UHGV virus genome: UHGV-0014911
Direction: 5' to 3' (one strand)
Source of the DNA: a virus
Length of the DNA: 40,159 bases
In this document: positions 1-40,159 of the stretch, piece after piece
Numbering within the stretch: position 1 is the first letter of the stretch
How the letters are laid out: each line of letters begins with the position of its first letter
The notes under the pieces: generated by a model
Seen by the model: the letters and a program-made list of their open reading frames with translations, nothing else
What the model was told of the DNA's origin: nothing
Databases searched by the model: none
Position numbers and translations under genes: made by a program

Positions 1-90
1 TTGCCTCCCCCCCGTTGATGGGTAAAATAGCCGCAATTTTTCGTTTTCAACAAGCGCGGCGCGATGCCGCTTACTCAAGAAGAAAGAATT

Positions 91-165
91 ATGACGTTGT
101 CTCCTTATTTGCAAGAGGTGGCGAAGCGCCGCACTTTTGCCATTATTTCTCACCCCAATAATTAA
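91..165 (+). pseudogene. prfC: 5' fragment of a peptide chain release factor 3 gene: 22 codons ([22 protein letters not shown]) then two foreign codons and a stop; candidate attL junction
   Basis: ATG at 91 translates to [22 protein letters not shown], which I recall as the N-terminus of enterobacterial RF3, just before its GTP-binding loop. The frame then reads NN-stop instead of continuing, and the DNA turns AT-rich. An integrase gene follows 220 bp downstream. Confidence 0.55.
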
Positions 166-319
166 GCCTAAATTAAAGCTCTTTTACTTTTTCAAAGTCC
201 TTTCAGTTAATTGATGTTTGGTTTTATAAGTCATTTAAATACAGTTAGTTATGTGGCTTCTTTAATTGAAAATTCTTTCATGTAACTTTAAATCGATCAG
301 GTTGCTTTCATCAAAAATC

Positions 320-376
320 TGTACATATGCTTGTACATAATGTACAAAGCAGCAGAGGTGTTTTGCGATTTGTACA
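320..376. promoter_or_regulatory. Cluster of four TGTACA hexamers directly upstream of the integrase start, including a 17-bp palindrome TTGTACATAATGTACAA (331-347); candidate integrase-promoter operator or arm-type recombination sites
   Basis: TGTACA occurs at 320, 333, 341 and 371, within 60 bp and ending 10 bp before the int ATG at 386. The middle two form perfect 8-bp inverted arms. Confidence 0.4.
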
Positions 377-385
377 AGGTGAGTA

Positions 386-1621
386 ATGGCGCTGTCTGAT
401 GCGTGGTTGCGTTCAGTCGTTGGAAAGGAACGTGATAAGGTTTTGGTTAAATCCGATCGTGATGGTCTGTCTGTCAGAGTATCACCGAAAGGTCGCGTAG
501 TGTTCCAATATCGTTATCAATGGGCAGGGAAAGGTGAGCGCCTTGATATCGGAACTTACCCGGCAACTGGATTAAAAGAGGCCAGAGAAGAAGTTATCCG
601 TCTCCGTGGTGAACTCGAGTCAAACCGCAATCCACGATTAGTCAAGCAGGCTGAAAAACGAAAAGCTACTGAAGCCATGACGGTAGAGTCTGTGATCTGT
701 GCCTGGTATGAAGCATATTGTGTAAAAAATAAAAAAGGTTCTGAACAGATACTCCGCTCGTTTGAGCTGCACCTGTTCTCTAAAATCGGGAATATCCCTC
801 ACGATGCAGCTACATTGCATGATTGGTTAGAAGTCCTGGAGCCTCTTAGCACCAAGACTCCAGCAATAGTAGACCGATTGCTAATTAACGCAAAGCAGGC
901 TCATGTCTGGGCGTATAAGAGAAAGCTCATTGAAACTCGCCCACTGTCGGATATCACGGGTAAAGATATGGATATCCGTAAAGGTCAGAAAAAACGGTTT
1001 CTGACACATGATGAAATTAACATCCTTTATGCTGCGATCGATGGTTCTCGAATGGTTCCTAAATACCGAGCCTTCATTAAACTATTGCTGCATTTTGGTT
1101 GCCGTAGTTCAGAGCTAATTACTGCTAGGGTGGATGATTTTGATTTCATAAATAAGGTATGGACTGTACCACCAGAACGACATAAGACTGGGGACATAAC
1201 AGGCGAACCGCTAAAGCGGCCCATTATTGAACCGGTTGAAGAGCTTATAAAATACGTTATCTCTATGAACAACGGTTCCGATATGCTTTTTACTAAGGAA
1301 GGAAGCAGGGAGCCAGTTGGTCGGACATCATTGCAGTCGCTGCCTTACAATTTAATGCAGTTCGCATGGCGACGTTTGGGGTATCAATTTCCTCATTGGT
1401 CTCTTCATGATTTGAGACGAACAGCACGAACAAACTTTTCTGATCTTACTGCTCCTCATATTGCTGAAATAATGCTTGGTCATAAACTGCCAGGTGTATG
1501 GCAAGTTTATGATAAGAGCGATTATCTAGAAGAACAGCGTAAAGCTTACTGGGCATGGTGGGAGAGGGTTGAATCGATCGTTACTTGTACTGACTTAATC
1601 TCCAACGGACAGTTTGCGTAG
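386..1621 (+). CDS. int: Tyrosine site-specific integrase (P4/CP4-57-like, N-terminal arm-binding domain)
   Basis: 411-aa ORF with RBS AGGTGA before the ATG. The C-terminus carries the tyrosine recombinase signature (HDLRRTARTN ... LGHK ... VYDKSDY). It sits next to the apparent attachment junction. Confidence 0.9.
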   Translation: MALSDAWLRSVVGKERDKVLVKSDRDGLSVRVSPKGRVVFQYRYQWAGKGERLDIGTYPATGLKEAREEVIRLRGELESNRNPRLVKQAEKRKATEAMTVESVICAWYEAYCVKNKKGSEQILRSFELHLFSKIGNIPHDAATLHDWLEVLEPLSTKTPAIVDRLLINAKQAHVWAYKRKLIETRPLSDITGKDMDIRKGQKKRFLTHDEINILYAAIDGSRMVPKYRAFIKLLLHFGCRSSELITARVDDFDFINKVWTVPPERHKTGDITGEPLKRPIIEPVEELIKYVISMNNGSDMLFTKEGSREPVGRTSLQSLPYNLMQFAWRRLGYQFPHWSLHDLRRTARTNFSDLTAPHIAEIMLGHKLPGVWQVYDKSDYLEEQRKAYWAWWERVESIVTCTDLISNGQFA

Positions 1622-3122: not shown

Positions 3123-3317
3123 TTACTCAATAACTCCAGCAAATCTGTATATTTTGCGTGATGCCCATTTATTTGGGCAGGATTTAATATCAGGATCTGG
3201 AAAATCTGGCCTGTATTTCTGGCCTGTCCTCCTGTTTACGCTGTTCCAGCGAAGCACCGTCGATATTGAAACGCCACAGAATTCGGCGACTTGTTTTGTT
3301 GTCATTAAGTTGCTCAT
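3123..3317 (-). CDS. AlpA-family small DNA-binding protein (excisionase/regulator-like)
   Basis: 64 aa with RBS GGAGG 7 nt upstream of the ATG at 3317. Pattern HTH ... TVLRW ... YRPDFPDP ... W resembles the AlpA/Xis-like family typical of P4-type integrase modules. Confidence 0.55.
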   Translation of the reverse strand: MSNLMTTKQVAEFCGVSISTVLRWNSVNRRTGQKYRPDFPDPDIKSCPNKWASRKIYRFAGVIE

Positions 3318-5279: not shown

Positions 5280-5876
5280 TCATCATATCGACCCTGCAAG
5301 GTCGGTTGGTTTCTCCACAAAACAGAGAAGAACACCTGCGGTGGCAGCCGCCCGGGTGGATTGGGTTATGAGCCCGTCGTCCGGTGATGCTCTTCTCTGT
5401 TTTGTAAAAAGAGCGGTACCAGCCGGAAGCAAGTGTACAAACTGGTACCGCCAAAGCAGTGGCTGTTGTGGTGGGCTTGTCACTTAAGCGTATGGTCAAC
5501 CTGACAACCCGGTGTCCTCAACGGGGAAGGAATAACCCCGCCATACTTACCGCCGCGCCATTTCGCGGATTACCACAACGCTGAGAGCACTTAGCCAGTT
5601 ACGGCACCATACTTTGTCGCGGTTCCATAAATGCCCTCATCGTTGCACCCTGGTCTCTTCCCAGGCGTCAAACCGAATCGCCACGCTGGTTAGGCGTCTT
5701 ATCAGCATCATCATTGACTTGCACATTCCGGCTACCTGGTTTGTTTGCCCGAGCAAGGAGTGGATTGTCCCCTTTAACGTCACCAGACCGCTAACGACGC
5801 ATGTGCCATACGCCGTGTTACAACCAAATTTTGTTAGTACCTTGTTTGTATGTCTGGAAAGAAAGATAAAATGAAG
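5280..5876 (-). promoter_or_regulatory. About 600-bp non-coding, structure-rich leader of the leftward early operon (candidate cis-regulatory RNA, processing or attenuation element)
   Basis: No convincing ORF on either strand. Contains a 15-bp perfect inverted repeat ACAAAACAGAGAAGA (5317-5331) / TCTTCTCTGTTTTGT (5391-5405) around a GC-rich 59-nt spacer, plus hairpins CGACC-N6-GGTCG (5289-5304), GTACCAG-N19-CTGGTAC (5416-5448) and GGGG-N9-CCCC (about 5524-5540). Confidence 0.35.
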
Positions 5877-5970: not shown

Positions 5971-6663
5971 TTAATTGTGTCGCTTAAGGGTTTGTGACTG
6001 ACTGATTAAGACCTTTCCAAAGACCATAAACCGATGTTCGTTTTCGCTGGTAATTCCCCATTCGCGGTAAATCTGATTATCAGAAATTACCAGCAGTTTA
6101 TCAGGTATCATTTGCAGTCGTTTGACGTAAATTTTATCATCAAAACCAAATACATATATACCATCCCCATCAAACTGATTGATACTGATATCAACGAAGA
6201 TGAGATCTCCTGGCTCAATGGTTGGACACATACTGTCCCCACGAACGTTGATAACTTTAATGTGATTTGCTGGTCGTCCACCAAACATCGATACAGCATT
6301 ATCAGTTCTGTATTCAATGGCATGAATCACATCAATGACATCACCGCCCTGGATAAGGCCATTTCCCGCACTGGCACTGACATCCAGCATTTCAATACGG
6401 AATACATCCTTCACCTGCGCAACATCCTCACTAATACTGTTTTTACATACAGTATTACTTTTGAGGTCTGAGGTAAAGAGATCAGCAATATCAACACCTA
6501 AGCTCCTGGCAATATTACTCAGGGCTTGTTCAGTGAATTGTTTCTGCTTACCTGTTTCGAGGCGCGAGATATTCGCCGCATCCACTCCTATTGCTTCAGC
6601 GAGATCGGCGATTTTCATGTTCTTCGCCTGGCGAAGTTGTCTGACTCGATTTCCTATGTTCAT
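5971..6663 (-). CDS. CI-like phage repressor (N-terminal XRE-type HTH plus C-terminal S24/LexA-like autopeptidase domain)
   Basis: 230 aa. HTH near the N-terminus (KIADLAEAIGVDAANISRLETGK), Ala-Gly cleavage site (SASAGNG), and Ser/Lys dyad motifs (VRGDSMCPTIEPGDLIFVD; YVKRL). Confidence 0.9.
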   Translation of the reverse strand: MNIGNRVRQLRQAKNMKIADLAEAIGVDAANISRLETGKQKQFTEQALSNIARSLGVDIADLFTSDLKSNTVCKNSISEDVAQVKDVFRIEMLDVSASAGNGLIQGGDVIDVIHAIEYRTDNAVSMFGGRPANHIKVINVRGDSMCPTIEPGDLIFVDISINQFDGDGIYVFGFDDKIYVKRLQMIPDKLLVISDNQIYREWGITSENEHRFMVFGKVLISQSQTLKRHN

Positions 6664-6683
6664 GCGTTTATTACATTTCTTTA

Positions 6684-6746
6684 TTGCGCGTTAAGCAAAT
6701 CAACTTGCGCAAAATATTTGCGTGAAATAATATGCTCATCACGCAA
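6684..6746. promoter_or_regulatory. Candidate OR operator region between divergent repressor and cro-like genes (PRM/PR)
   Basis: TTGCgcgttaaGCAA (6684-6698), a related near-palindrome around 6705-6722, and aTGCtcatcacGCAA (6733-6746) lie in the 97-bp intergenic region. Confidence 0.45.
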
Positions 6747-6760
6747 TATGTGGAGGTTAT

Positions 6761-7021
6761 ATGCAATCACCATTACGGAATGTGCGTAAGGCGCACGGAT
6801 TTACTTTGCAGCATGTTGCTGCGGGCGTTCAGGTCAATCCAGCGACGCTGAGTCGTATTGAAAGACTGGAACAAATTCCATCTATCGATCTTGCAGAACG
6901 TCTGGCCAATTTTTTTAAGGGTGAAATCAGCGAAATGCAGATTCTTTATCCGGCACGTTTTCAATCTAGCCAAAACCAGAATGGGTTTAAACCACAGGAA
7001 CAGGAGGTAAGCCGTGGGTAA
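6761..7021 (+). CDS. Cro-like XRE-family HTH regulator
   Basis: 86 aa, HTH motif (LQHVAAGVQVNPATLSRIE), RBS GGAGG 4 nt before the ATG, divergent from the repressor. Confidence 0.75.
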   Translation: MQSPLRNVRKAHGFTLQHVAAGVQVNPATLSRIERLEQIPSIDLAERLANFFKGEISEMQILYPARFQSSQNQNGFKPQEQEVSRG

Positions 7022-7571
7022 TCATCACTGGAAAGTGGAAAAACAGCCTGAGTGGTACGTGAAAGCTGTCAGAAAAACTATCGCGGCGTTGCCGGGGGGT
7101 TACGCTGAAGCTGCTGAGTGGCTGGATGTAACAGAGAACGCATTATTCAACCGCCTTCGTGCAGATGGCGATCAGATTTTCCCGCTGGGATGGGCAATGA
7201 TTTTACAACGTGCTGGTGGAACTCACTTCATTGCTGACGCTGTGGCGCAGTCTGCAAATGGCGTCTTTGTGTCTCTTCCTGACGTCGAGGATGTGGACAA
7301 CGCCGATATTAACCAGCGTCTGCTGGAAGTCATCGAACAGATCGGGAGTTACTCAAAGCAGATTCGTTCGGCAATCGAAGATGGGGTAGTGGAACCGCAT
7401 GAGAAGACAGCAATTAACGACGAACTGTATCTTTCAATTTCGAAGCTCCAGGAGCATGCAGCACTGGTCTACAAAATCTTCTGCGCTCCAGAAAAGAGTA
7501 ACGCCCGCGAGTGTGCAGCTCCGGGCGTCGTGGCGTCGATTGCTTCTGGTTGTGGAGAAACTAACGCATGA
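7014..7571 (+). CDS. Early-region protein, possibly a CII-like regulator by position (family not confirmed)
   Basis: 185 aa, GTG start with RBS AGGAGG 5 nt upstream, immediately after the cro-like gene. Confidence 0.4.
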   Translation: MGNHHWKVEKQPEWYVKAVRKTIAALPGGYAEAAEWLDVTENALFNRLRADGDQIFPLGWAMILQRAGGTHFIADAVAQSANGVFVSLPDVEDVDNADINQRLLEVIEQIGSYSKQIRSAIEDGVVEPHEKTAINDELYLSISKLQEHAALVYKIFCAPEKSNARECAAPGVVASIASGCGETNA

Positions 7572-7716
7572 ATAGTTTAACGGCAAATAACCGTTTGTCG
7601 CAACAGCTGGTGGTCAGCGTCGCTGAACACCTGTTGTTACGGCATGAATGCAGATTACCAAATCACCTGGCTGTAAGTAACCACAGAGAACTTTACCTGA
7701 TTGTGGGGGGCGAGTT

Positions 7717-7896
7717 GTGCAGGAACTTAACCGCTGGTTTCGTGACGGAAGAGGACTTTATGTTCATGTTATTCGTTGGGAGCCAGAAACACAGCGCGTT
7801 ATCTATCTTCGCAAAGACTACCCGCATGAGTGCTTTAGTCCTTTGTGGAAATTCAGGCGTGATTTTGTTGAGTGTGAAGGACCACCAGCATATTGA
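7717..7896 (+). CDS. Small hypothetical protein (59 aa, GTG start), absent from the ORF track
   Basis: Manual translation gives VQELNRWFRDGRGLYVHVIRWEPETQRVIYLRKDYPHECFSPLWKFRRDFVECEGPPAY, preceded by a G-rich RBS-like run, in a 600-bp stretch otherwise lacking a convincing gene. Confidence 0.3.
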   Translation: MQELNRWFRDGRGLYVHVIRWEPETQRVIYLRKDYPHECFSPLWKFRRDFVECEGPPAY

Positions 7897-8170
7897 TTCT
7901 GCAATTCCGGGACGTTACACTGTCTCTGCACCTTATAAAGCGGGTGCCGGGATTGGCGTCCTGAAATTGTCAACGGCGATGTATGACGCGCCAGCGTCTT
8001 TTTTATCGTCCGCATTTGCTCACATCCAGATTATGGTGGGCTGGGCGGGGGCACCGAAAGGTGCGCCGGTCTCCGTTGACGCCGGTTACGCCAACCCCGT
8101 CCAGTTCACCACCAGTGAAATTGGCGTTTCCGGTGGTGGAAGTTTTTCACTGTCAACGGAGGCTGCCATC

Positions 8171-8728
8171 ATGGCTACGATCCCAGCCCTCACTCAACCT
8201 GAAATCACCATTGACAACGGCCAGGCCGTTACCACTTCTTTGGCTGTTGCCAACTTCTTCTCCAAGCGTCACGACGATGTGCTGAAAAAGATCCGCACTC
8301 TGGATTGTTCCCCTGAGTTTTGTGCCCGCAATTTTGCGGAGACATCGATTTCGGTAAATCAACCGAACGGTGGTACACGCAAGCTCCCTTGCTATCAAAT
8401 CACACGAGACGGTTTTGCATTTCTTGCTATGGGTTTCACGGGTAAACGTGCTGCCCGGTTCAAAGAGGCATACATAAATGCCTTTAACCAGATGGAAAAA
8501 CTGCTTTCAAAGCCATCCACGCTGAGCGATGCCGCAGATAACGCCAGCGTGCTTTACTCCCACCTGTCGGTAATCCACAAGGTCTGGCTGCAGCAGCTTT
8601 ATCCCATGTTGGCAAAAGCCGAATCCCCGCTGGCTGTAAGTCTGTATGACCGCATCAACGACGCGGCGCTACTGGCCAGTCTCATAAATTTGTCGCTGAA
8701 CCCTTCAGAGGTAAGGGGGCGCAAATGA
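8171..8728 (+). CDS. Rha-family phage regulatory protein (antirepressor-like)
   Basis: pRha-type motif (TTSLAVANFFSKRHDDVLKKIRTL ... YQITRDGFAFLAMGFTGKRAARFKEAYINAFNQME). Start placed at the ATG at 8171 with RBS GGAGG 8 nt upstream. The frame stays open upstream to 7568, so the N-terminal boundary is uncertain. Confidence 0.7.
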   Translation: MATIPALTQPEITIDNGQAVTTSLAVANFFSKRHDDVLKKIRTLDCSPEFCARNFAETSISVNQPNGGTRKLPCYQITRDGFAFLAMGFTGKRAARFKEAYINAFNQMEKLLSKPSTLSDAADNASVLYSHLSVIHKVWLQQLYPMLAKAESPLAVSLYDRINDAALLASLINLSLNPSEVRGRK

Positions 8729-37661: not shown

Positions 37662-38745
37662 CTATAATTTTGATAGTGGTGACGGTCTTTTTTTTATCAG
37701 CTTGGTTAAATTTCTATATGCAATTTCAGATCTTAACCCACTAACTCCAGTATAAGATGTCATTGTTTTTCTTAACTTATTATTGAAGTGTGGAGATTGA
37801 TATTTGCGTAGAACATCCATAATGTCTTTTATATCACAGGAGTCAGCCACTATATCAAAATCACGATATACATTACCATTTTGTTCAGGAATAATAATGG
37901 TTGGTTTGTACGCTTCTATAGACTCAAGTGCAGCAGTACTTCCTGATGTTAGGACAATATCAGCTTCACTTAGTGCCTCGATGAAAGTTTTGTTTTTGTC
38001 AGATAATTTAACGCTATTGTCTAATAGGGGTGAATATATATCAATGTGTTCTGGATGTGGTCGTAATATAACGTTATAACTCTTCTGTTGTAAACATTTT
38101 ACAATATCTCTAACTATTTTAGTTGGTACTGTACTTTGTAGGGCAAAAAGAAATGATAATTGTCCTGTTTTAATTTTTATTTCTATTTCTCTTGCTGTTG
38201 TGTTATAATGCTGTGCTGTGCTGTGCTGTGCTGTGCTGTGCTGTGCTGTTATCTAGTTTTGGAAGTCCAAGACTTATTACCCTATTTCTAAATTTTTCGT
38301 TGAATTTATTAATAAAAGCCTCGCCAAACACACCGAAGTAATCAAAGCAATCAAAGTTATTCTCATATCCTTCCCAGTTTTGATAAAATCCATGTTGAAG
38401 CCCAATGAAAATTGGACTTTTATAACTGTTATTCATGGCTTTCTTTAAATCTAATTCCGGACCTGCAACACAACTGGTCATCAAAACAGCATCATAATTA
38501 ACTGCATTTTTTGTAAAATCTAAAAGAACCTCTTCTTTTGTTCTGTTGACAAAATTAAAATTAGAATCAATTTTATCTACCAAAAGAATGTTTTCTTTAA
38601 TTTCCAGTAGTTTTCTGTGATTTGGATCGGATATTCTAGGGAAGAATATATAGTCACATATTCCTCCGTTCTTACGGATTTCATAAACTAAGGGAAGCCA
38701 GTTTTCTAAACATCTGTAAGTAAACGCAGTAAATAATATTCGCAT
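37662..38745 (-). pseudogene. AT-rich transferase-like cargo gene split into two reading frames at a pentanucleotide repeat (currently frameshifted; candidate phase-variable gene)
   Basis: The N-terminal segment (ATG at 38745, MRILFTAF...) runs into the repeat and stops at 38203. A second frame is open with no stop and no start codon from 38252 to 37662, spanning the repeat, and encodes ...ILRPHPEH ... IVLTSGSTAALESIEAYKPTIIIPE... The two frames meet exactly at the repeat. Confidence 0.7.
38210..38249. repeat. Perfect pentanucleotide microsatellite (GCTGT)x8 inside the coding sequence
   Basis: Eight uninterrupted GCTGT units on the plus strand, encoding (STAQH)n on the minus strand, located exactly where the frame breaks. 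Confidence 0.95.
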
Positions 38746-38784
38746 TGTTGTATGTTGTCCAATTGATAATAATGCATTCTTCTG

Positions 38785-38813
38785 ATTGTACAATGGTTTG
38801 TTGTTTGTTACAA
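38785..38813 (-). promoter_or_regulatory. Candidate sigma-70 promoter of the transferase-like gene (TTGTAA, 17-bp spacer, TACAAT)
   Basis: Read on the minus strand, about 40 nt upstream of the ATG at 38745; the -10 overlaps the palindrome ATTGTACAAT. Confidence 0.4.
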
Positions 38814-39209: not shown

Positions 39210-39258
39210 ACATGATGCAGGCCGCCGGTAAAGATTAATGCTGGCAGCCAGCACAACT

Positions 39259-39525
39259 TTAGAGCCCAACCTGGCGAACTGTCGGGAACTCAGACACCAG
39301 CCACATATCGGCCTCTTCAAACATATCCTCCAGCATGCGGTTCAGCTTTTCCCGATCGCTTTTGCTGGCATCGCTATTCAAGGCGTTTGCCTGCATCGGT
39401 TTCACCTTCACTTCGGCATAAGGGAAAATCTGATGCACTTGCTTCGTCAACTCAGCCAGGATGATCTCTCTGGCCCCCGCCAATCCTTCAACATTACGCT
39501 TGTCATAAACCAGTTCAACGAACAT
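39259..39525 (-). CDS. DinI-family protein (MsgA-like)
   Basis: 88 aa starting MFVELVYDKRN with an acidic C-terminal region; LexA boxes lie just upstream. Confidence 0.75.
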   Translation of the reverse strand: MFVELVYDKRNVEGLAGAREIILAELTKQVHQIFPYAEVKVKPMQANALNSDASKSDREKLNRMLEDMFEEADMWLVSEFPTVRQVGL

Positions 39526-39542
39526 ACAAGCCTCCGGAAAAA

Positions 39543-39586
39543 TACTGTGATTGTATACAGTAATTTTACTGTAAGAATAAACAGTG
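39543..39586. promoter_or_regulatory. Two tandem LexA (SOS) boxes upstream of the MsgA-like gene
   Basis: TACTGTgattgtatACAGTA (39543-39562) and TACTGTaagaataaACAGTG (39567-39586); both fit CTGT-N8-ACAG. Confidence 0.7.
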
Positions 39587-39677: not shown

Positions 39678-39910
39678 AAAGTGCACGTGCATATTTTTGT
39701 CTTTTCTCGGTCTGCCTACTGTCTGGTCAGTGTCCGTAAGTGGCTGTTTTTATTTCCTCTTTCCGGTTGCAGTCCTATCAAAAGTGGTGGAGCTGGCGGG
39801 AGTTGAAACCGCAGACACGTCGTATGCAAGAACGTGCTGCGGTTGGCTGGTAAGCTTCCGATAGTGCGAGTATTGAATGATTTCCAGCCGTTACTGATTT
39901 TACGTGCTAA

Positions 39911-40159
39911 TTAGTGAACAAACCACTCGTCAGCAGACTCCCGGGTATCTTTCAGAGTTTCCTGAACAAAAGTTTTAGCTGAATCTTTATCGGCGGTGCG
40001 CGTAACAGAAAGGCCATCGTTGCTGGTGGCTTTTACGATCACCTCTACATCGTCATAACGCTTACTGATGCGTCGAGTTAATTCTTCCTTTAACGCATCC
40101 ACAGCACCGTTTGGCATTTTAGTCATCTTCTCTTTGGCTATGCAGATCTCAATACGCAT
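39911..40159 (-). CDS. dinI: DinI-like DNA-damage-inducible protein
   Basis: 82 aa, MRIEICIAK ... ESADEWFVH, closely resembling E. coli DinI; the start codon sits at the last bases of the window. Confidence 0.8.

Follow-up and report, generated by a model that had tools for sequence, protein, structure and literature searches.

The stretch of DNA analyzed here (the window; 40,159 nucleotides (nt), virus genome UHGV-0014911) is an Escherichia coli lambdoid prophage that sits in the 5' end of prfC, with attL at its left end. This assignment was made because a 14-bp sequence near that end, ATTATTTCTCACCC, is annotated as an insertion duplication in Stx2c prophages. The same 14-bp core is common to attP of phages Ayreon and cdtI and to attR. 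Directly ahead of the prfC stretch are the host genes holD-rimI-yjjG, the same genes that stand upstream of prfC. The match to prfC ends at 155/156, and the reading frame closes two codons further on, in phage DNA; the first 22 prfC codons thus occupy 91-156, and RefSeq annotates the counterpart of the stretch at 91-165 (in L001) as a partial pseudogene. The prophage splits prfC after codon 22, and the far end of the phage encodes a replacement 5' end that includes the start. This replacement is seen in the attR arms of L003 (2440-2510), L011 (1915-1977), and L012 (1050-1120). Since the far arm encodes a new start, prfC is restored after insertion, and the replacement 5' end presumably comes with a promoter of its own. 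The promoter-like site at the very left of the window is probably the host prfC promoter (Table 1), and we found no terminator-like site between it and the integrase gene, int. The same int module occupies prfC in 699 of 5,425 complete E. coli genomes (~13%) and is also present in Stx1a, Stx2c, and Cdt-I toxin-converting phages.

Elsewhere in the window, the immunity genes comprise cI (5971-6663, minus strand), cro (6761-7021), and a CII-like gene (7014-7571). The Rfam families isrK (7928-8004) and C4 antisense RNA (8029-8116) stand in tandem at 7928-8116, within an open reading frame (ORF) at 7568-8728. A perfect pentanucleotide repeat, eight units of GCTGT, occupies 38210-38249 at the 3' end of a minus-strand ORF (38203-38793) that the initial annotation called a transferase. 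Because the frame stops right after the repeat, this arrangement suggests either slipped-strand phase variation or a frameshifted gene. The window ends at a dinI-like gene, and in related phages a dinI-like gene directly precedes attR. The gene that ends the window (39916-40159, minus strand) is the second of its kind; upstream of the other DinI-like gene (39238-39525, minus strand), two CTGT-N8-ACAG sequences resembling LexA boxes lie at 39540-39585. In phage cdtI, the left arm of attP is immediately adjacent to the equivalent dinI with its LexA boxes. The sequence TGGTGGAGCTGGCGGGAGTTGAA (39785-39807), which resembles the reverse complement of the 3' end of transfer-messenger RNA (ssrA), is possibly a remnant of another element's attachment site.

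The integrase gene is adjacent to attL and points away from the core, with no other gene between the core (142-155) and its ATG at 386. Its product carries the Pfam domain Arm-DNA-bind_3 (PF13356; residues 3-90, E value of 2e-16, 60 bits against a cut-off of 27), together with matches to Phage_integrase (E value of 6e-17) and to Phage_int_M (E value of 7e-6, just below cut-off), and it belongs to PHROG 1 (integrase). The N-terminal domain also matches the structures 3JTZ (residues 1-80) and 3JU0 (residues 1-96), which are N-domains of CP4-like integrases. The candidate excisionase gene, xis, encodes the small protein that the initial annotation had termed AlpA-like. Its product matches the excisionase family PHROG 1553 (E value of 1e-34), with weak matches to HTH_17 and MerR, and is orthologous (44 to 79% identity) to a small ORF that is convergent with int in relatives. 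A 377-aa ORF at 1780-2913 (PHROG 7779, no Pfam match) lies between int and xis; it looks like a moron, because xis directly abuts int in the relatives.

Table 1. Features of the attL region and the recombination genes (positions are those of the window)
Feature	Position	Strand	Remarks
Promoter-like site, TTGCCT-16 nt-TAAAAT	1..28	+	Predicted; points through attL towards int
Truncated host prfC 5' end	91..165	+	Codons 1-22, then N N stop from phage DNA
attL core, ATTATTTCTCACCC	142..155	.	14 bp; 'duplication due to insertion' at both ends of Stx2c prophages
CTTTCA repeat copy 1, TTCAAAGTCCTTTCAGTTAA, core CCTTTCA	191..210	+	Direct repeat; candidate excisionase or IHF site
CTTTCA repeat copy 2, TTGAAAATTCTTTCATGTAA	266..285	+	Direct repeat, from alignment
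CTTTCA repeat copy 3, shorter, GGTTGCTTTCA	300..310	+	TTGCTTT invariant in six-sequence alignment
P'1, CTGTACAT	319..326	+	First of 12-bp-spaced tandem pair; predicted arm-type site
P'2, TTGTACAT	331..338	+	Second of tandem pair, left palindrome half; predicted arm-type site
CATAAT, -10-like hexamer in P'2	335..340	+	Putative int -10; no acceptable -35
P'3, TTGTACAT on minus strand	340..347	-	Right palindrome half; predicted arm-type site
P'4, TTGTACAA	370..377	.	Orientation ambiguous; 39 bp from P'2, adjoins Shine-Dalgarno; predicted arm-type site
int	386..1621	+	411-aa tyrosine recombinase with arm-binding N-domain
xis	3123..3317	-	64-aa excisionase (recombination directionality factor) candidate

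A tight cluster of TGTACA hexamers, at 320-325, 332-337, 341-346, and 371-376, occupies the P' (int-proximal) arm of attL. They stand 15 to 66 bp upstream of the int ATG and about 175 to 225 bp from the 14-bp core (165 to 222 bp beyond its edge). The initial annotation had described four copies within 60 bp before int, two of them arranged as a 17-bp palindrome with perfect 8-bp arms, and had judged such a cluster unlikely by chance. We confirm the four copies (at 320, 332, 341, and 371) and the palindrome, which spans 331-347 and consists of TTGTACAT (331-338) and ATGTACAA (340-347) with 1 nt between them. The cluster also exceeds chance under two null models. When the whole window was shuffled with dinucleotide composition preserved, none of 2,000 shuffles reached three or more TGTACA within 57 bp, and when the AT-rich arm was shuffled by itself (157-385, 71% A+T), none of 20,000 reached four copies. 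Every other palindromic hexamer occurs at most twice in any 60 bp of the window.

Outside the cluster, TGTACA is unremarkable. The genome-wide count that had been proposed as a check gave no enrichment: the window holds 11 copies against an expectation of 7.0 ± 2.6, and 7 of these lie outside the cluster. Similarly, TTGTACAT with at most one mismatch occurs 20 times in the window against 30 expected. Two further copies, at 5434 and 38787, had been suggested to be connected to the int cluster by one DNA-binding protein. The copies do exist, but the connection did not hold up: as the window as a whole is not enriched, they are at chance level, and both are single copies lacking the paired architecture of the cluster. 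A regulon operating through 5434 and 38787 was rejected on these grounds. The copy at 5434 lies alone in the loop (~19 nt) of a 10-bp inverted repeat, GCGGTACCAG ... CTGGTACCGC, at 5412-5450, in the apparently non-coding start of the leftward early region; this repeat has no link to the int cluster.

In the intact attP of the free phages Ayreon and cdtI, the same four int-side sites are centered at +174, +186, +195, and +225 relative to the center of the core. TGTACA recurs on the other side, at -187, -118, -90, and -78 in both phages, with a fifth copy at -233 in Ayreon. The -90/-78 pair (TGTACATATGaTTGTACATAAT; it reads TTGTACATATGATTGTACATAAT) is nearly identical to the P'1-P'2 pair, including the 12-bp spacing. 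Of the eight conserved sites, six match TTGTACAT perfectly in one orientation or the other, and P'1 and P'4 match it at 7/8, with orientation assigned by eye. The core ATTATTTCTCACCC itself contains no TGTACA. The far arm with its TGTACA sites is also carried by the attR ends of PhiR63_1 and of Stx2c prophages.

We recovered diverged versions of this left arm by scanning viral contigs for the codons of the prfC G1 motif. In L271, L282, L303, L279, L283, and L295, a 12-bp-spaced (T/C)GTACA pair stands at a fixed distance from the core and 25 to 40 nt before the replacement prfC start, in surroundings that are otherwise unrelated. One of these arms, L282, and the contig L269 are the two ends of a single 36.5-kb element, and the motif is present on both. 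A different arrangement is seen in L100 (1082-1300) and L304, where a phage-type left arm, complete with replacement prfC start and TGTACA, lies immediately ahead of a second element, or of a different one, evidence that the prfC site has been occupied serially or in tandem.

The position and spacing of the int-side hexamers are conserved across distant orthologs of the integrase. A scan of the genome collection with the Int protein yielded 4 loci, and diverged orthologs were gathered by protein search and contig look-ups. These share 84% (Salmonella), 82% (Trabulsiella), 82% (Pantoea), 77% (a metagenome contig), 66% (L095), 64% (Xenorhabdus), 61% (Serratia), and 51% (Vibrio) of Int residues with the protein encoded here. 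All prfC-type orthologs (51 to 84% identity) are inserted at the same prfC codons. Beyond the closest relatives, the ~230-bp arm is largely unalignable, yet TGTACA is still kept: with 36 copies, it is the only hexamer common to all 11 arms (51 to 100% Int identity). P'1 and P'2 remain 12 bp apart, and P'2 and P'4 remain 38 to 40 bp apart (Salmonella, Trabulsiella, Pantoea, L094-L097, and Vibrio), in an arrangement that stands 15 to 27 bp before the ATG. P'1 keeps the same distance in orthologs with 51 to 84% Int identity and shows no polymorphism in 22 distinct E. coli arms, and TGTACATAAT at P'2 is the best-conserved stretch of the arm. Across those 22 arms, 0 of the 24 hexamer columns vary, compared with 59 of 206 other columns (Fisher p = 5e-4).

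The four sites are not equally constrained. P'3 is kept at Int identities of 77% and above and is degenerate or lost at 66% and below, and it is therefore the least constrained site. By the same token, the palindrome that first drew attention is not itself the functional unit; the constrained units are the direct pair and the distal site.

The motif also follows the integrase when the target changes. In the P0023 group, which has 57% Int identity and does not insert in prfC, GTGTACATAcTGgTGTACATAAT is kept at -42/-30, and an icd-inserting relative has TGTACA at -57, -45, and -8. A Klebsiella phage integrase with 46% identity uses the codons for FSIIAHID, in the 5' end of lepA, as its insertion site. 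This target is homologous to the prfC target FAIISHP in the GTPase G1 region, so that related integrases target paralogous translational GTPase genes (prfC and lepA) at an equivalent position. We examined lepA-type elements in L009 (1-230), L143, and L147 (~240 nt upstream of int), and took the intact lepA-type attP from the IMG/VR contig L147. On both arms, this attP repeats the prfC-type layout with GTGTCCA in place of TGTACA: four copies (two direct, two inverted) stand before int, and the far arm, supplied by the phage, has a 12-bp-spaced GTGTCCA pair before the replacement lepA start. The lepA lysogen L143 lacks the far-arm GTGTCCA copies, as expected for host DNA, and the end of the Klebsiella phage 5 record (L010) reaches no recognizable attR. 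The Int N-domains align throughout, with few differences between the TGTACA group (for example, GLSVRVS/FQYRY) and the GTGTCCA group (GLWVRIS/FFYRF); S30 and Q42 are replaced by W and F in the lepA group. Judged from these comparisons, the motif changes with the integrase, independently of core or target.

Taken together, these observations favor reading the TGTACA cluster as arm-type Int sites (P'1-P'4) that probably also serve to repress int, and we put the probability of this reading at roughly 0.75. The initial annotation had offered arm-type recombination sites as one option beside an operator for integrase autoregulation or excisionase binding. That option gains support from the presence of the motif on both arms, its conserved position and spacing, its covariation with the integrase, a layout like that of phage P4, and the arm-binding N-domain of Int, and we infer that Int is the protein that binds these sites. 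In the mechanism that we propose, the catalytic and central domains of Int would act on the 14-bp core inside prfC, while its Arm-DNA-bind_3 domain would bind the TGTACA sites on the int arm together with the matching set ~80 to 190 bp away on the other arm. Int would thereby bridge arm and core, with bending proteins between, and form the intasome for integration; for excision, the Int intasome would act together with the 64-aa excisionase. Int bound at P'1-P'4 would, in addition, repress int.

This last step, autoregulation, had also been proposed in the initial annotation, which placed the cluster over the integrase promoter. As a second role for the sites it is plausible by analogy with P4 and KplE1, but the promoter itself could not be located. 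A consensus scan called no sigma-70 promoter on the plus strand in 100-500 of the window, nor in the intact attP. No gene stands between int and the junction, and int is directed away from that junction; its transcription therefore has to start in the arm or pass through it, and it is for this reason that Int at P'1-P'4 probably represses int. A candidate -10 does exist in P'2: the hexamer CATAAT, which was not called by the scan because it has no acceptable -35, is present in 10 of 11 diverged arms and is kept in L095-L097, where P'3 has decayed. If CATAAT is the -10, P'2 would cover it, P'1 would fall within the spacer, P'3 would coincide with +1, and P'4 would belong to the leader. Such an arrangement agrees with that of KplE1 and P4, whose Int proteins are described as repressors of int. 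The case for autoregulation is built from geometry, the conserved CATAAT, and analogy. A possible alternative source of the int transcript is read-through from the promoter-like site at 1-28.

The same geometry raises the question as to whether the arms double as a swapped promoter system, in which Int/Xis occupancy would, in a lysogen, set the expression of release factor 3 (RF3) and host prfC transcription would feed int. On the phage side, the far-arm TGTACA pair stands 25 to 40 nt upstream of the replacement prfC start, at a fixed distance in otherwise unrelated arms; on the host side, the prfC promoter-like site points into int with no terminator between. We regard this idea as doubtful. 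If it were true, host translation-termination capacity and prophage stability would be wired to each other, and the lepA relatives would make the arrangement a general strategy.

Among other explanations for the arm-type motif, one would have the TGTACA sites bound by the 64-aa excisionase and not by Int, bending the arm for excision and repressing int. Orthologs of the excisionase occur throughout these elements, so that this protein covaries with the motif as well, and TorI of KplE1 is a documented case of a recombination directionality factor with sites that overlap an int promoter (PMC2951348). Because xis is inherited with Int as a module, covariation does not separate the two proteins as binder. 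Relative divergence, a weaker argument, favors Int: in the P0023 group, the excisionase is only ~34% identical over 38 residues, compared with 67% for the Int N-domain, whereas the TGTACATAnTGnTGTACATAAT pair is unchanged. The sites also occur on both arms and in both orientations, in the layout of the annotated P4 arm repeats. Finally, this arm contains a separate CCTTTCA repeat, absent from the other arm, that is better placed for an excisionase, as it lies between the core and the TGTACA cluster. Sites for directionality factors usually lie between the core and the arm cluster, as for lambda Xis. The CCTTTCA repeats are direct and are spaced 75 and 30 bp apart. They are kept in Salmonella, Trabulsiella, and Pantoea although their flanks have diverged. 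In the six-sequence alignment, TCCTTTCA in the first copy is invariant while its flanks diverge; Pantoea has only a degenerate form of the third copy, and L094 lacks it. We consider these repeats a candidate site for the excisionase or a bending protein, and binding of the TGTACA sites by the excisionase the less likely reading, and an improbable one.

Lower still stands the possibility that a dimeric transcription factor with no part in recombination (CI, Cro, or a host regulator) uses the cluster as an operator and binds the 17-bp palindrome to control int. The perfect 8-bp inverted repeat and the position of the cluster immediately upstream of a gene start would suit such a factor. However, the palindrome is lost at Int identities of 66% and below, where the direct pair and distal site persist, and the motif recurs on the attP arm that is not in front of int. 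In the rest of the prophage, TGTACA is not enriched. Between cI and cro (6664-6760) there are TTGCG/CGCAA-type repeats and no TGTACA, and a CI/Cro operator was rejected because of this difference in repeats. In Klebsiella phages, the motif becomes GTGTCCA when the integrase changes, which speaks against a host factor common to enterobacteria, and we judge an operator of any of these kinds very improbable. Although the arm is AT rich and palindromes can fold, a chance cluster or an RNA hairpin in the int leader is effectively refuted by the arm-only shuffles, by conservation of the hexamers across genera, and by a predicted fold of 157-400 that is no stabler than shuffled sequence (z = 0.14).

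With arm-type Int sites as the preferred reading, the known sites define a minimal attP of ~420 bp (-190 to +230). They would offer concrete targets for research on, or engineering of, how these toxin phages integrate, excise, and remain stable. The TGTACA arm sites reveal no new mechanism; anything more than routine could come only from the promoter-swap geometry at prfC and lepA.

In the library searched, no paper connects TGTACA to arm-type sites or gives an account of the attP of phages that insert in prfC, and the occurrence of TGTACA in Gateway att sequences is only a coincidence. The concept of arm-type sites is textbook knowledge (lambda, P4, and KplE1), and the TGTACA motif is most likely not described before. 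In KplE1 (CPS-53), int adjoins attL, its promoter lies in the arm, and the P' sites overlap the -10; repression of int by IntS and by the directionality factor TorI has been shown experimentally, the transcription start has been measured, and overlap between attL and the int promoter is predicted to be widespread (PMC2951348). The prophage described here resembles KplE1 in having int adjacent to attL, with the promoter placed within the arm only by inference in our case. It differs in its integrase, in its motif (the P' motif of KplE1 shares TAAA), and in its target, which is a tRNA-Arg gene in KplE1.

Lambda Int is heterobivalent: it recognizes arm sites (P1, P2, and P'1-P'3) that differ from its core sites, occur on both arms, and are joined to the core by bridging in the intasome. 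The sites described here likewise lie on both arms and are distinct from the core sites. In lambda, however, int is transcribed towards attP from pL or pI, and the arm sites do not lie over the int promoter. The lambda N-domain also belongs to a different Pfam family, and lambda attP is ~240 bp long, compared with at least ~420 bp here. Restoration of the interrupted gene by an element-borne 5' end is known from SXT/R391 elements as well. SXT is an integrative and conjugative element (ICE) and not a phage, and its int is driven by the SetCD-activated promoter Ps003, rather than by one in the arm that flanks the core.

P4 Int reportedly represses int through binding at the int promoter (summarized in PMC2951348). 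P4 shares with this prophage an Arm-DNA-bind_3 integrase whose gene adjoins attP and is transcribed away from the core. Its annotated "attP arm sequence repeats" form a 12-bp tandem pair on each arm, with an inverted copy or copies at the int ATG, and CATAAT lies between paired arm repeats there too. Unlike P4, which targets a tRNA-Leu gene, this phage uses the 5' end of a protein-coding gene. The two Int proteins are only ~24% identical, and the arm is longer in this prophage: the sites lie ~175 to 225 bp from the core here, as opposed to ~115 to 165 bp in P4. The P4 motif is TGGGGGCA(T/C), or GGGGGCA, in place of TTGTACAT. TGTACA, GTGTCCA, and GGGGGCA, each set in the same layout, thus offer a natural series for the reading of DNA by Arm-DNA-bind_3.
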